Shown here one piece after another: positions 44,205-49,690 of a stretch of 64,000 bases of DNA (position 1 is the stretch's first letter; every line of letters begins with the position of its first letter). This DNA comes from Candidatus Woesearchaeota archaeon. GTDB lineage: Archaea; Nanobdellota; Nanobdellia; Woesearchaeales; GW2011-AR4. The notes below the pieces were generated by a model, which saw only the letters and a list, made by a program, of their open reading frames with translations, made no database searches and had not been told where the DNA came from. A program made the translations under genes and the position numbers. The stretch spans positions 1,442-65,441 of the forward strand of contig JACPIE010000019.1 of the NCBI GenBank assembly GCA_016188245.1. The letters run 5' to 3'.

Positions 44205-44696
44205 CTATTGATTTCCATATATTTTGATTATTCTGCTTATCAGCCCGGTTGTAGAATGCCCTTTCTCCGCTTTCGCAATCACAATCTTTCCGCCACTTTT
44301 TTCAACAGCACCCTTTTCTATGATCTGGCTTAATCTGTAGTCGCCAGCTTTCACATGGACATCTGGCTTTATTTTTTCAAGCCATACCATGGGGTTTTTT
44401 TCATCAAATAAAAAAACATAATCGACGCTTTCAAGCCCTGCAAGGACTCCAATTCGTGATTTTTCATCGTTAATCGGCCTTTTGTCGCCCTTGTTTGCCT
44501 TCACAGACTTGTCAGTGTTGACCCCCGCAATCAGAACATCTCCGAGTTTTTTTGCCCCTTCTAAATATTTAACATGCCCCAAATGCAGAATGTCAAAAAC
44601 TCCGTTTGTTGTAATTATTTTTTTATTCTGTTTTTTTAGTTTGTCAACTATTTTAATGAGTTCGTTTAATGTTTTGATTTTTTTACTGATTGCCAT
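44205..44696 (-). CDS. hldC: D-glycero-beta-D-manno-heptose-1-phosphate adenylyltransferase (RfaE domain II type)
   Basis: TNGVFDILHLGHVKYLEGAKKLGDVLIAGVNTDKSVKANKGDKRPINDEKSRIGVLAGLESVDYV closely matches the cytidylyltransferase-like RfaE-II signature. Confidence 0.8.
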   Translation of the reverse strand: MAISKKIKTLNELIKIVDKLKKQNKKIITTNGVFDILHLGHVKYLEGAKKLGDVLIAGVNTDKSVKANKGDKRPINDEKSRIGVLAGLESVDYVFLFDEKNPMVWLEKIKPDVHVKAGDYRLSQIIEKGAVEKSGGKIVIAKAEKGHSTTGLISRIIKIYGNQ

Positions 44697-45213
44697 GTTT
44701 TAAAATCCACTTCGCAGCATCAATTAAATCCTTTGCAATATAATCAGCATTTGCATTTTCTTTTTCCTTCATCCCGTTGCCTGTCAAGACCAATATTGAC
44801 TTGCAGCCTGAATTGTGGCCCATATCGACGTCAATTTTCTTGTCCCCTATCACGAAAGACTTGCTCAAATCAATCTTGAAGTCTCTTTCAGCGTCCTTAA
44901 TCATTTTTGTCTTTGGCTTTCTGCATCCGCAATTGTCTTCAGGAGCATGCGGGCAGACATAAGTTTTTTCTATTTTTATGCCGTGTTTTTTCAGCTCTTC
45001 CACAACTCGGCTATTATAATCCAAAAAATCCTCAAACTTGAAATACCCCCTCCCAATGCCGCTTTGATTTGTAATGAAAATCAGCCTGAATCCCTTCAAT
45101 AATTTCAGACCTTCAACTGCATTTTGAACAAGATTAAAATCTTTTATCTTGTGGACATAGCCCAAATCTTCTGTCACGACACCATCACGGTCCATCAGCA
45201 CTGCTTTTGTCAT
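44683..45213 (-). CDS. gmhB: D-glycero-D-manno-heptose-1,7-bisphosphate phosphatase (HAD family)
   Basis: It has LMDRDGVV (the DxD nucleophile), ITNQSGIGRGYF, the Zn-site motif CPHAPEDNCGCRKP, and VIGDKKIDVDMG. Confidence 0.8.
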   Translation of the reverse strand: MTKAVLMDRDGVVTEDLGYVHKIKDFNLVQNAVEGLKLLKGFRLIFITNQSGIGRGYFKFEDFLDYNSRVVEELKKHGIKIEKTYVCPHAPEDNCGCRKPKTKMIKDAERDFKIDLSKSFVIGDKKIDVDMGHNSGCKSILVLTGNGMKEKENANADYIAKDLIDAAKWILKHGNQ

Positions 45214-46184
45214 AGCTCTTCAATACCTTTTTTCAGCTCTTCAATGCTGACTGACGCAGTTCCTATCTTCCCGACTTTTATTCCTGCCGCTATGTTCGCA
45301 AGCACAGCGGCTTCCTCAAGTGCAGCGCCGGAAGCCAATGCAAGCGCCAGCGTGGCAACAACCGTGTCGCCTGCCCCGATGAGGCTGTAGACTTCCCTTG
45401 CCTTCGCCGGAATATGGGTTATCTTGCCGCCCATCTCAAACAGAGACATCCCTTTTTCGCCTCTTGTTATGAGCACATTTGTATTCAGGTATTTTAGCAG
45501 CTTGTTTCCAGTCTCAAGAACAGCGCTTTCGCTTCCGTCTTCAATGTCGGCCATTTCGCCCGCTTCGGAATTATTCGGGGTTATCAGGGTGACATTTGAG
45601 TAAAGGTTAAGGTGTTTTGGCTTTGGGTCAACAATGACTGCCTTGCTGTGCTTTTTTGAAATTTGGACCAGAAAATCGCAGATGGCCGGAGTTATGACCC
45701 CTTTTGCATAATCGGAAATGACAACCACATCAATATCCGCAATAATCTTCTTCAAAAAATTCATGAGCGATTCTTCAATGTCCTTGTGGACATGCTCCTT
45801 TTTTTCATAATCCACCCTGAGCAGCTGCTGGCTCTTCCCAACAATCCTGACTTTCTGTGTGGTTGGCTTGTCATTGTCTGTGAAAATGCCTTCTGTGTTT
45901 ATTCCCATGCCTTTTAGCTCATTAAGAAGGGTTCTTTTGGCCTCGTCATTTCCTGCAATGCCCACCATGAAGCTTTTTCCGTTCAATGCAGCCACATTGC
46001 TGGCGACATTTGAAGCGCCCCCCGGAGCGTATGTTTCCTTCTGGACGTGCACGACCTGGACAGGCGCTTCCGGGCTTATTCTCGACACATCGCCCCAGAT
46101 GTACTTGTCAAGCATAATGTCGCCTATAACAAGGATATTTTTGTTTTTGAATTGCTCCAGTATTTTCAGCAGCTTTTGCTTCAT
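45210..46184 (-). CDS. hldA: D-glycero-beta-D-manno-heptose-7-phosphate kinase (RfaE domain I, PfkB family)
   Basis: [29 protein letters not shown] is the RfaE-I N-terminal signature. The PfkB C-terminal motif is [11 protein letters not shown]. Confidence 0.8.
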   Translation of the reverse strand: [324 protein letters not shown]

Positions 46185-47779: not shown

Positions 47780-48532
47780 ATGGTAAAATCAAAAATAGCA
47801 ATATCAGTTGACAGTTCCCTTTTGAAGCTTGTCGACTCGAAAGTCGACGGCTCTGTCATAAGAAGCAGATCACAAGCCATAGAATACTTCCTGAAAAAAG
47901 GCCTGCAGGAGCAGTCGGTAAGCATTGCAGTTATACTGCTTAAAGGAGAGCATCAGAAATTTGCCATGAAAAATGTGAAAGGCGCTTCTTTGATAAAGAA
48001 GCAGATTGAATTGTTCTCAAAGCACGGCATCAAGACAGTTTATATTGTGACCCAGCACACTAAAAATATGAATCTCCTGCTTGGCGAAATCTCAGATTCC
48101 AGGATAAATGTTGAGCTTATTGAAGGGCAGTCAAGAGGAAACGCAGATGCGCTGAAGGGGCTAAAAGAAAAAATAATCAATAGCTTTGTCGTAATGTCAG
48201 GCGACACATACAATGACTTTGACTTGCTGAAGATGATAAAGAAGCACATTGATTCCGAAAAGCTTGCAACAATGGGATTGATGACGAGAGAAAAGACCCA
48301 CAGCTACGGGACAGCAATCCTTGATGGTGACCTGGTAGTTGATTTTCAGGAAAAGCCAAAGCATTTCTCGACAAACATCGTGAATGCAGGGATATACATC
48401 TTTAGCCCGGAGATATTTGAGATGTTTGAAGATATTACCTCATTAGAAAAAGAATTATTTCCGAAATTAGCGAGAATGAAGCAGCTTGTCGGATTTTTTA
48501 ATTATGGGGAATATCTGCACATGACTGATTAA
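47780..48532 (+). CDS. Fusion protein: N-terminal ribbon-helix-helix (CopG-like) domain plus a sugar-phosphate nucleotidyltransferase-like domain with a degenerate active-site loop
   Basis: The N terminus, KIAISVDSSLLKLVDSKVDGSVIRSRSQAIEYFLKKGL, has the RHH pattern. The remainder resembles NTP_transferase (VMSGDTY, NAGIYIFSPEIF), but the G-x-G-T-R loop is replaced by AVILLKGEHQKF. Confidence 0.55.
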   Translation: MVKSKIAISVDSSLLKLVDSKVDGSVIRSRSQAIEYFLKKGLQEQSVSIAVILLKGEHQKFAMKNVKGASLIKKQIELFSKHGIKTVYIVTQHTKNMNLLLGEISDSRINVELIEGQSRGNADALKGLKEKIINSFVVMSGDTYNDFDLLKMIKKHIDSEKLATMGLMTREKTHSYGTAILDGDLVVDFQEKPKHFSTNIVNAGIYIFSPEIFEMFEDITSLEKELFPKLARMKQLVGFFNYGEYLHMTD

Positions 48533-49668
48533 ACCAGCTTCTCAACTTCCTTCAGCACATCGTTGACGCTTATGTTCTTCATGCATTTCTGGTAGTCATT
48601 GCTGTTTCTTGGATACAGGCAGTCAGGAACCTGTCCTTTGTGGACGTTGATGCACGGGCTGAATTCGCAGTTGTATCCCTTGTACAGCCCAATGTTTCCT
48701 TTTCCATAGGGCCCGAAGCGCTGTGGCAAATTCGGCCCGAAAAGCCCGATAGTCCTGACCCCCTGGGCTGCTGCAACATGCATGGGCCCGGCATCATTGC
48801 CGATAAAAAGCCTGCATTTTCCTATAAGGCAGAACAGACGGCTCAATGTAAGTTTGCCCGCGGAATTTATTGCATTGCTTTTGCTTTCCATGGCATTGCG
48901 CACATTTTCAGCCAGTTCAGCTTCATTCAAAGCCCCGGCAAAAATTATCTTCGCGCCATGCCTTTCAACCAGCTCGTCGCAAAGCTCTGCATACCTTTCA
49001 TAAGGCCATATTCTCGCCCTGGCAGATTCTGCAGCTCCAGGAGCCACGCAGACAGTAAAATCATCTTTTTTTATGCTGTTCCTCTTAAAGAATTTATCCA
49101 CCCACTTTTTGTCGCTTTTTGAAAAATCCAGCCCGGGAAGCCTGCCGGTGTCAAAATCCGTGCCAAGTTCCCGTATCAAATCAAGGAAAGTCTGCACAGC
49201 ATGCTGCTTGTCATTATACTTTATCTTATTCGTGTATAGTTTTGCCCTCGGTCCATGGGAGTATCCAATTGATGTTTTGCCAGCAAAAAAAGAGAGTATT
49301 GCAGATATGTTCAGGTATTCTTCCATATCGATTGCCAAATCGTATTTTTTAATGTTCCTAAAGATAAAATTCAGGACGGATAATGGATTAAGGCTTATTC
49401 TTAGGATATTATCTATATTTTTATTGCTGCAGTAAACCTCCTTATTCCTTGATGTAGCCAAAACATCTATCTGGGCTTTAGGCAGTTTTTTTCTTAAAGC
49501 TTCTATGGCAGGCAAAGTCAGGATAGTCTCGCCGATTCCCCATAGTTGAATAACTAGTATCTTTTTGAACTCTTTGCCATTATCCTGCTTTCCACTGTTG
49601 AACAAGCCAAGAAAATTGCAAATAATATTTCCAATATGCTTGTCAAAAAATTTTACTGCCGCTATCAT
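48529..49668 (-). CDS. GT9-family glycosyltransferase (heptosyltransferase-like)
   Basis: ILVIQLWGIGETILTLPAIEALRKKLPKAQIDVL and IGNDAGPMHVAAAQGVRTIGLFGP are GT9 signatures. The ORF-track start 49680 is a TTG. ATG 49668 lies about 26 nt downstream of a TATA box. Confidence 0.8.
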   Translation of the reverse strand: MIAAVKFFDKHIGNIICNFLGLFNSGKQDNGKEFKKILVIQLWGIGETILTLPAIEALRKKLPKAQIDVLATSRNKEVYCSNKNIDNILRISLNPLSVLNFIFRNIKKYDLAIDMEEYLNISAILSFFAGKTSIGYSHGPRAKLYTNKIKYNDKQHAVQTFLDLIRELGTDFDTGRLPGLDFSKSDKKWVDKFFKRNSIKKDDFTVCVAPGAAESARARIWPYERYAELCDELVERHGAKIIFAGALNEAELAENVRNAMESKSNAINSAGKLTLSRLFCLIGKCRLFIGNDAGPMHVAAAQGVRTIGLFGPNLPQRFGPYGKGNIGLYKGYNCEFSPCINVHKGQVPDCLYPRNSNDYQKCMKNISVNDVLKEVEKLV

Positions 49669-49690
49669 GGGCAGTGGCAAATCTGCACCT

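Follow-up and report, generated by a model that had tools for sequence, protein, structure and literature searches.

We analysed a stretch of 64,000 nucleotides (nt) from a Candidatus Woesearchaeota archaeon (NCBI GenBank assembly GCA_016188245.1, contig JACPIE010000019.1, positions 1,442 to 65,441 of the forward strand). This whole stretch is called the window, and coordinates given without a locus label count from its first letter. The window contains a tightly packed minus-strand operon at 44205-47675 that appears to serve the synthesis of ADP-heptose and lies in an island of glycosylation genes, together with GT9-type transferases and the oligosaccharyltransferase AglB. From its upstream end, the operon comprises genes for GmhA, a fifth protein of the GSU2086 family, HldA, GmhB and HldC, with junctions of -14 to +28 nt when the co-directional genes downstream are included:

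47079-47675, minus strand: GmhA, sedoheptulose-7-phosphate isomerase with the SIS fold (TIGR00441; PF13580, 96 bits)
46181-47077, minus strand: GSU2086-family protein of 298 amino acids (NF052581), between the kinase and isomerase genes
45210-46184, minus strand: HldA, heptose-7-phosphate kinase of the PfkB type, RfaE domain I (TIGR02198)
44683-45213, minus strand: GmhB, heptose-1,7-bisphosphate 7-phosphatase, HAD-IIIA (NF006506)
44205-44696, minus strand: HldC, heptose-1-phosphate adenylyltransferase, RfaE domain II (TIGR02199)

Judging from family models and aligned residues, it is very probable that the four canonical activities (GmhA, HldA, GmhB and HldC) are all encoded here. HldA passes its equivalog model (TIGR02198, 377.9 bits against a cut-off of 345), with ribokinase as the next-best kinase model at 100 bits, and is 40% identical over 315 residues to the N-terminal domain of Escherichia coli HldE, its GAGDTV being aligned as the PfkB GAGD motif. 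HldC passes TIGR02199 marginally (181.7 against 181.5 bits) and shows 45% identity to the C-terminal domain of E. coli HldE, with HLGH and GHSTT aligned to HAGH and GCSTT. GmhA reaches 207.0 bits against the equivalog TIGR00441, which is 2.4 short of the cut-off of 209.45, and DiaA and other SIS models score far lower. Pairwise alignment with the fetched E. coli K-12 gene gave 43% identity for GmhA, and the residues aligned to E. coli H61, E65, Q172 and H180 are kept, as are the GNGGS and TSGNS loops; we take the four E. coli residues to have catalytic and zinc-binding roles and the Ser-rich loops to bind phosphate. GmhB, which is 33% identical to its E. coli counterpart, scores 170.8 bits against the beta-anomer equivalog NF006506 (cut-off 178) and 133.7 bits against the alpha-anomer model (cut-off 250), the beta-anomer model thus scoring higher. 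Its DRDGV and CPHAPEDNCGC are aligned to DRDGT and CPHHP...CDC of the E. coli enzyme, that is, to the HAD nucleophile and the C-x-H...C-x-C zinc loop.

An earlier sequence-only reading of this DNA had named these four enzymes, and its open reading frames (ORFs) were found where it had placed them; the peptide motifs it quoted are present and align with E. coli catalytic and zinc residues. Its account of the operon stood for GmhA, HldA, GmhB and HldC, but it had overlooked the fifth gene and also the regulator described below. As for specificity, the kinase passes the heptose-7-phosphate kinase model and the others stand at or just under theirs, with the residues that we take to be catalytic or metal-binding in all four enzymes intact. 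It should be noted that the shortfall of GmhA and GmhB, 2-7 bits under their equivalog cut-offs, weighs against their assignment.

The genes point to the beta/ADP route and not to the alpha/GDP route, since the kinase is of the PfkB type and the nucleotidyltransferase of the cytidylyltransferase type, and no GHMP kinase is present in the window. HldC reads AEKGHSTT, with a His at the Arg position of the STTR5 motif (F/L)XXGRSTT; this motif marks CTP/UTP-promiscuous heptose nucleotidyltransferases, although it is not strictly required (PMC11573728; Tang et al. 2024). Given that HldC lacks the STTR5 arginine, its main product is expected to be ADP-heptose.

As the sequence-only reading had also noted, the kinase and the adenylyltransferase are separate genes and no HldD was recognised within the window: the best window short-chain dehydrogenase/reductase (SDR) reached 109.8 bits against the HldD models (TIGR02197/NF008360), for which the cut-off is 274.6. 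With E. coli HldD as the BLAST query, identities in the window did not exceed 26%, and the related loci L007-L009 gave generic SDRs at 24-25%. The four SDR epimerase/dehydratase genes of the window were each considered as HldD and set aside, being far below the cut-offs and better matches to dTDP-glucose dehydratase, LegB or RmlD.

The fifth gene is closely embedded in the operon, sharing 4 nt at its stop with the kinase start and beginning 1 nt past the isomerase stop. Its product passes NF052581 with 412 bits (cut-off 250), residues 10-299 covering positions 2-300 of the 301-position model, and remains below the cut-off of the Pfam deoxyhypusine synthase model (DS, PF01916; 16.6 bits against 27). 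The label 'deoxyhypusine synthase', which one public source gives to a homologue, was therefore rejected: the Pfam score lends it no support, and the fold alone is common. A sequence search of the PDB with the protein returned no match. Using 37 diverse sequences as input, AlphaFold gave a model with a pLDDT of 96.4, while 18 near-identical sequences gave only 61.5. The top Foldseek matches of the model in the PDB were deoxyhypusine synthase (7cmc), the LOR/SDH-like protein 3c2q and the C-terminal domain of ArgZ/AgrE (E ~4e-8, TM ~0.6, ~13% identity). Moreover, the family profile matches the ArgZ/AgrE C-terminal and 3c2q domains at the sequence level (E 6e-6 to 3e-5), with which the family has in common the motif G-x-x-V-I-x-x-G ... 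N-A/G-x-x-x-H-D-x-E. NAD+ is the recycled oxidant in both the ornithine cyclodeaminase class and deoxyhypusine synthase. In 6lrg, an AgrE structure among the Foldseek matches, ornithine and NAD+ are bound in a ternary complex, and the second activity of AgrE is that of an ornithine cyclodeaminase (PMC8262935).

The GSU2086 family is large, with 2272 clusters at 50% identity at E < 1e-3 and 492 at E < 1e-30, and its members occur across Desulfobacterota, Verrucomicrobiota (including Akkermansia), Omnitrophota, Planctomycetota, Firmicutes, the candidate phyla radiation (CPR) and several archaeal phyla. We examined the neighbourhood of homologues in 80 genome loci from many phyla. An SIS protein stands immediately upstream in 18 of 66 cases and a PfkB kinase immediately downstream in 26 of 59, and no other family recurs more than 6 times beside a homologue. 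No HldD orthologue was found within 8 kb on either side of the homologue in these 80 loci. Natural fusions join the family to a PfkB kinase, to an SIS isomerase (in both orders), to a cytidylyltransferase-like domain, and to an ARMT1-type phosphatase plus cytidylyltransferase. Within eight Woesearchaeal loci, the GSU2086 protein is the most evenly conserved product of the module, at 79-81% identity, whereas its neighbours range from 45 to 84% (AglB 61-74%, GmhA 45-78%). It has His, Asp, Glu, Lys and Arg residues that are invariant or near-invariant, a pattern typical of an active site. The Geobacter sulfurreducens gene GSU2086, around which the NF052581 model is built, is flanked by hldE and gmhA and shares their mutant defect in transposon sequencing (Tn-seq), with -3.2 against -3.1 and -3.7 for those two genes (PMC5585712). 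Beyond this one Tn-seq table, no published function for the family was found in the literature searched.

What the fifth protein does can be stated only tentatively. That it is a NAD enzyme modifying a heptose intermediate is a prediction from the modelled fold and the gene context to which we give rather less than even credence, and the narrower prediction that it substitutes for HldD as an epimerase is doubtful. A competing explanation, confined to this gene, is that the protein is a non-catalytic scaffold or regulator of the GmhA and HldA steps, or acts on an unrelated amine; we regard this as plausible, without being probable. The characterised structural relatives all oxidise amine C-N bonds, in spermidine or ornithine (PMC8262935), the identity to them is only that given above, and many bacterial GSU2086 loci have neither GmhA nor HldA adjacent. 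The Geobacter phenotype could also be a polar effect (PMC5585712), which tells against our reading of the gene. On the other side stand the fusions with four different heptose-pathway domains, the recurrence of the SIS-upstream/PfkB-downstream layout across many phyla, and an extreme conservation that extends to the charged residues.

Other arrangements of the family were also recorded. In an unclassified archaeon (L015, 5439-9874), HldA-GmhA and HldC-GmhB fusions are followed by GSU2086 and a second kinase. In Nitrososphaerota, Crenarchaeota and Anaerolineae (L016, 6338-8023; L021, 72-1754; L027, 7932-9635), GSU2086-SIS fusions are followed by a divergent PfkB kinase.

Facing the operon, on the opposite strand, lies a gene for a putative regulator, and the two are separated by a conserved control region:

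47780-48532, plus strand: ribbon-helix-helix (RHH) plus NTP_transferase-like protein, putative operon regulator (PF00483, 84.9 bits)
47660-47779: divergent control region of operon and regulator gene, with blocks conserved in 8 orthologous intergenic regions

The PF00483 match of this protein begins only at model position 25 and its PDB alignments begin at residue 63. The canonical NTP loop of PF00483 is, as we assume, G-x-G-T-R-L at the N-terminus; the corresponding stretch here reads LLKGEHQKF and is conserved in orthologues. The N-terminal 61 residues match RHH_1 (PF01402), the CopG-type DNA-binding domain, over residues 7-35 with 19.0 bits and an E-value of 0.0013, and the first ~45 residues are near-identical in four orthologues. 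The protein is distantly HddC-like (PDB 5xhw, 48 bits; NF049965, 33.8 bits). That it works as an active HddC-like guanylyltransferase and supplies a second heptose nucleotide is nevertheless unlikely, given that the NTP loop is unmatched and a probable RHH domain is attached.

The 105-nt intergenic region was compared by alignment with seven orthologous ones. A conserved box, TTTAAATA, lies at 47693-47700, and 14 nt past it, at 47660-47678, stands the palindrome AGTATGAA-ATA-TTCATACC, whose right arm has the variant TTCATAC(C/T). Allowing up to one mismatch, this is the sole match in the window. A second conserved block, on the side of the regulator gene, carries related half-sites and a TATA-like box. 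The archaeal-style TATA promoters claimed by the sequence-only reading have a counterpart in TATA-like boxes of this intergenic region that are conserved in 8 loci. The palindrome holds the first ATG of the GmhA ORF. Since this ATG sits within a conserved intergenic element, and an in-frame TAA follows it in most of the aligned orthologous regions, the true start of GmhA is probably the second ATG at 47645, which would give a protein of 188 amino acids, similar in size to its orthologues.

Because the protein at 47780-48532 has a probable RHH domain and faces conserved palindromes, it is probably the regulator of the heptose operon, and may act as a ligand-sensing repressor or activator. A point to be set against this is that the RHH match lies under the Pfam cut-off of 20.5 bits.

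Beyond the regulator gene, the island encodes a GT9-type transferase, and a second one lies further away in the window:

48529-49668/49680, minus strand: GT9a, GT9-family (heptosyl)transferase (PF01075, 130 bits against 22)
31951-32946, minus strand: GT9b, second, more divergent GT9 transferase (PF01075, 56 bits against 22)

Both GT9 genes, as well as aglB, had been placed on the contig by the sequence-only reading, and the family matches bear this out. In the PDB, GT9a matches by sequence the Veillonella GT9 protein 3tov (108 bits), E. coli WaaF 1psw (61 bits) and also WaaC 2gt1/2h1f. It keeps the donor motif NDxGxMHxAAA, here NDAGPMHVAAA, which answers the question of the donor site raised by the earlier reading, and the R-x-W-P element as ARIWP. 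GT9b has SDSLALHIGVA, a D-S-x-x-x-H donor motif, and the canonical GAIGD catalytic motif. The C-terminal tail of GT9a (within 48529-48650) contains four conserved Cys, C-x4-C-x10-C-x12-C, past the catalytic domain.

Some points about these enzymes count against a simple heptosyltransferase role in glycan assembly. GT9a reads GIGE, with a Glu at the catalytic Asp of WaaC/WaaF (WaaC D13), and the Glu is found in four Woesearchaeal orthologues too; it may serve as the catalytic base, but the activity or the donor of GT9a could also differ. Furthermore, GT9 acceptors are unpredictable from sequence, and GT9-like enzymes can O-heptosylate proteins directly (PMC4358343).

The other side of GT9a leads to AglB and its neighbours, and to a block of surface-protein genes:

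63739-63999, minus strand: C-terminal fragment of an FAD-binding (geranylgeranyl-reductase-like) gene (tblastn, 78% identity to a 363-residue protein of L007)
60486-63557, minus strand: AglB, STT3-type oligosaccharyltransferase of 1023 amino acids (PF02516, 121 bits; PF21436, 24 bits)
59817-60485, minus strand: GT2 of the polyprenyl-phosphate sugar synthase type, PpgS/AglJ-like (PF00535, 73.7 bits)
59480-59815, minus strand: small DUF2304 membrane protein (PF10066, 65.6 bits against 25.5)
49930-59463, plus strand: five genes for secreted or surface proteins, with Peptidase_S8 (subtilase)/FG-GAP and cadherin-like/PKD domains and very sequon-rich small proteins

AglB carries the WWDFG catalytic motif (SWWDFGH). 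Its score against the archaeosortase-associated STT3 subfamily TIGR04154 (45.4 bits, cut-off 450) places it outside that subfamily only. The GT2 stays below the cut-offs of more specific models, with 128.6 against 370 bits for NF058614 (PpgS) and 94 bits for TIGR04182. The surface proteins contain 2.4-9.7 N-X-S/T sequons per 100 residues, versus 0.0-0.8 in the enzymes tested. Several GT-C/PMT_2-type and multiple GT2/GT4 enzymes are also found in the island around the operon.

This arrangement is conserved in relatives. In eight related contigs, including 228-kb and 213-kb contigs of NCBI Woesearchaeota metagenome-assembled genomes (MAGs), orthologues of window genes were found at 45-90% identity, most of them at 60-84%. 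In L007, L008 and L093-L096, all six contigs that reach far enough, the order is FAD-binding gene, STT3, GT2, DUF2304, GT9, a variable slot, NTP_transferase (on the opposite strand), SIS/cupin, GSU2086, PfkB, HAD, CTP_transf and GT2. L010 and L011, which end early, show a partial STT3, GT9 and the heptose operon in matching order. The FAD-binding gene precedes AglB in every related contig that reaches that far. All genes of this order are present in the window, and the only difference is the ~9.5-kb block of surface-protein genes, which is an insertion between DUF2304 and GT9a, as it is missing from the six related contigs that span both sides. In L095, a second heptose-type set, consisting of a CTP_transf and PNK3P(HAD) fusion and a PfkB kinase, lies ~7 kb downstream of the main operon (17972-20078).

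The conserved order bears also on the identity of the host. An archaeal origin of the window, of Woesearchaeota type, is all but certain in our view, as the earlier reading had assumed in calling the contig archaeal. The best 120 database matches of the GSU2086 protein have 77-84% identity, and all the named ones are MAGs of 'Candidatus Woesearchaeota archaeon' or 'Nanoarchaeota archaeon' from several studies. Looking up the exact sequences of the window's HldA and GSU2086 proteins gave only Logan contigs of 2-3 kb, which carry no taxonomy. A scan of GTDB, with one genome per species and 10 GSU2086 sequences as query, returned only such archaea at 80% identity, followed by bacteria at up to 57% and a few TACK archaea, where the protein has another, fused architecture. 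The related loci come from independent NCBI, JGI and ENA assemblies, and the G+C content is even across the junctions (operon 0.42, window 0.39), with no compositional break.

The alternative would be a bacterial contig, for instance from CPR, or a chimeric assembly, in which case nothing archaeal would be implied. It draws on the nearest non-DPANN relatives of the heptose enzymes and the GSU2086 protein, which are bacterial, and on the window itself, where tRNA and Rfam scans found no rRNA, tRNA, other Rfam family or ribosomal marker; the taxonomy thus rests on similarity to MAGs, which weakens the case to that extent. The archaeal matches, the recurrence of the gene order on both sides of the operon in independent assemblies (the 213-kb and 228-kb Woesearchaeota contigs among them) and the even G+C content make such an origin very unlikely, to the point of being barely credible. 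The STT3 with WWDFG and the TATA-like boxes conserved in 8 loci argue in the same direction.

Given this setting, we asked where the heptose may go. From the context, we lean with modest confidence towards an AglB-dependent N-glycan as its destination. The AglB-GT2-DUF2304-GT9 set abuts the operon in six contigs and the surface proteins are rich in sequons, which supports the claim of the sequence-only reading that heptose enters a surface glycan.

ADP-heptose could instead be used outside AglB N-glycans, either for direct heptosylation of Ser/Thr in the cytoplasm, in the manner of the bacterial autotransporter heptosyltransferases (BAHTs) TibC and AAH, or for a lipoglycan. Bacterial GT9-type enzymes do O-heptosylate proteins (PMC4358343), the four-Cys tail of GT9a sits at roughly the position of the TibC iron finger, and the GT-C/PMT_2-type transferases of the island could serve other glycoconjugates. 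We consider this outcome unlikely: TibC is absent among the PDB sequence matches of GT9a, of which the best are GT9 proteins of the lipopolysaccharide (LPS) type, GT9a lacks the ~97-residue N-terminal beta-barrel of BAHTs, and its gene stands directly beside AglB-GT2-DUF2304 in the six related contigs that reach far enough. The four-Cys tail, moreover, is present too in some bacterial GT9 genes in LPS-core-like clusters (L025). What it has in common with the four-Cys iron finger of TibC is a roughly similar position. A BAHT-type assignment of GT9a was thus rejected for want of a TibC sequence match and of the beta-barrel domain, and is kept only as the rival described here.

DPANN archaea live attached to hosts, which counts for another possibility, namely that the nucleoside-diphosphate (NDP) heptose is an end product or small-molecule precursor, for instance a natural product or a signal directed at a host or a partner cell, and not a unit of a surface glycan. 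The physiological role of archaeal NDP-heptoses has been stated as unknown (PMC11573728), and bacterial natural-product pathways draw on heptose nucleotides (PMC11461863). This possibility is quite improbable here, with two GT9, multiple GT2/GT4/GT-C enzymes and AglB around the operon, no typical secondary-metabolite biosynthetic genes flanking it, and GT9a fixed beside it in all related loci.

Downstream of HldC, three further genes run in the same direction (41282-44176, minus strand), with Pfam/NCBIfam matches and with orthologues in related loci:

43475-44176, minus strand: AglJ-like GT2, first gene past HldC (gap +28 nt)
42748-43473, minus strand: GT2, second gene (gap +1 nt)
41282-42751, minus strand: Epimerase_2-like protein of 489 amino acids, third gene (gap -4 nt)

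Only the C-terminal half of the 489-residue protein matches UDP-GlcNAc 2-epimerase, and the protein is ~80% conserved in relatives; it might act on a nucleotide sugar of the heptose pathway. Compared with L007, the window has a ~1.1-kb insertion (40195-41280) between this gene and a PTPS_related/YfhO-like gene, and the insertion carries a ParE/YafQ/RelE-type toxin gene (40812-41075, plus strand) with no obvious antitoxin seen. Elsewhere in the island (1868-4453, plus strand), the gene for a FemAB-family (aminoacyl-tRNA-dependent peptidyltransferase-like) protein comes after one for a B12-binding radical SAM enzyme, a pair that is unusual for an archaeal glycosylation island. Between GT9a and the first surface-protein gene, a G9 tract (49790-49798) is the only G/C run of at least 8 in the window, and could be a slippage-prone site affecting either flanking promoter.

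With regard to the origin of the pathway, we built an exploratory neighbour-joining (NJ) tree of HldA-type kinases, which has no support values and is sampled from loci with a GSU2086 homologue. The Woesearchaeal kinases form a tight clade whose sister is a Vulcanimicrobiota sequence, and both stand within a bacterial group to which E. coli HldE also belongs; those of TACK archaea group at a distance. This topology fits an inter-domain transfer of the heptose kinase. The acquisition from bacteria proposed by the sequence-only reading is consistent with this unbootstrapped tree, although the tree does not give the direction. Uniform composition and fixed synteny show that the genes were not acquired recently.

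The isomerase slot is labile, as reflected in the wide range of GmhA identities across related loci given above. In L008 (9562-10008) and L009 (3777-4223) it is occupied by a 148-residue cupin that matches the Pfam D-lyxose isomerase family (30.8 against 20.8 bits) and may stand in for the heptose isomerase as a non-orthologous replacement.

We hypothesize the following sequence of events. By homology, ADP-heptose would be made in the cytoplasm in four steps by GmhA, HldA, GmhB and HldC, and the fifth protein would add a redox-neutral change, most plausibly an epimerisation, to a heptose intermediate. GT9a, and perhaps GT9b, would then move the heptose onto a dolichol-phosphate-linked oligosaccharide at the cytoplasmic face. 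The neighbouring GT2 enzymes would take part in assembling this lipid-linked oligosaccharide, which would then be flipped, and AglB would finally transfer the glycan to N-X-S/T sequons of the sequon-rich surface proteins of the island. The RHH and nucleotidyltransferase-like protein would bind the palindromes over the two promoters, tuning the operon in response to a sugar-phosphate or sugar-nucleotide ligand.

In its broad outline, that is, a Woesearchaeota N-glycosylation island that makes, transfers and regulates heptose, we consider this account likely. A more demanding version holds that GSU2086 proteins are NAD-dependent, redox-neutral epimerases or isomerases that have a fold like that of deoxyhypusine synthase, take a heptose phosphate or ADP-heptose as substrate, and replace the SDR-type HldD or make another isomer in hundreds of bacterial and archaeal lineages, and that in Woesearchaeota the product enters AglB N-glycans under a sugar-sensing RHH regulator. 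This joint proposition is possible but unlikely to hold in all its parts.

ADP-heptose goes into the LPS core as a building block and is also a potent innate-immune agonist, sensed via ALPK1-TIFA. For a large lineage of archaea, the island offers a genomic answer, concrete and widely conserved, to the question of why archaea make this compound. The physical coupling of the pathway to AglB, GT9 and a polyprenyl-phosphate sugar synthase makes the presence of heptose in DPANN N-glycans directly testable. In addition, the four-step textbook pathway appears to have a fifth member, whose activity could alter the heptose isomers expected in many envelopes and could give the deoxyhypusine-synthase fold a new type of reaction.

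Clusters of this kind have been described in archaea before. A complete ADP-heptose cluster beside S-layer glycosylation genes was reported for Iplasma in 2013 (PMC3750248), and ADP-heptose clusters lie in glycan regions of Methanococcus maripaludis KA1 and JJ (PMC12667266). Archaeal enzymes were shown to make ADP-heptose by Tang et al. 2024 (PMC11461863, PMC11573728), and the N-linked glycan of Thermoplasma acidophilum contains heptose (reviewed in PMC11407970). The headline is thus a new lineage for an already known kind of cluster. In the literature searched, we found nothing relevant on ADP-heptose in DPANN archaea or on heptose in Woesearchaeota, and no description of GSU2086 as a conserved heptose-pathway member with links through gene fusions, of a fixed AglB-GT2-DUF2304-GT9-operon module in Woesearchaeota, or of an RHH/nucleotidyltransferase-like regulator with palindromic sites.

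Compared with the ADP-heptose pathway of E. coli (2002 work cited in PMC12667266), the window has the same four enzyme families, at 33-45% identity, in the same chemical order and with a product destined for GT9 transferases. It differs in that the kinase and adenylyltransferase are split and that genes which E. coli keeps at scattered sites are united in a single operon; HldD is missing from the window, a GSU2086-family gene is added, and the host is an archaeon without LPS. The Geobacter sulfurreducens cluster GSU2087-GSU2086-GSU2085 presents isomerase, GSU2086-family protein and kinase in the same order (PMC5585712), but there a single fused protein unites kinase and adenylyltransferase, and the pathway supplies the LPS core, in contrast to the split kinase and archaeal host found here.

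Like the clusters of Iplasma and M. maripaludis, the operon is an archaeal, complete NDP-heptose pathway set among glycosylation genes and proposed to serve the glycosylation of surface proteins. Unlike them, it belongs to a DPANN/Woesearchaeota lineage and is fixed beside AglB and a GT9 gene in related contigs. The fifth gene and the dedicated RHH-type regulator may be further differences.

A likeness to the GDP-D-glycero-alpha-D-manno-heptose pathway (GmhA, HddA, GmhB and HddC), which supplies S-layer and capsule glycans, lies in a heptose bound for a surface glycoprotein. However, the window has no HddA, its kinase is of the PfkB beta-type, and its HddC-like protein is without a recognisable N-terminal catalytic loop and is joined to an RHH domain. 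The GSU2086 protein shares its fold and N-terminal motif with deoxyhypusine synthase, LOR-SDH and the AgrE C-terminal domain, yet its context is that of sugar-nucleotide synthesis, not of polyamine or amino-acid metabolism, and the identity is as low as stated above.

Finally, the GT2 polyprenyl-phosphate sugar synthase followed by DUF2304 resembles mycobacterial PpgS (Rv3631), which we take to be paired with its DUF2304 partner Rv3632, although in the window the pair stands between AglB and GT9. As in Thermoplasma acidophilum, where an archaeal AglB-type pathway can carry heptose, the route proposed here would end on an N-glycan, in a different phylum.

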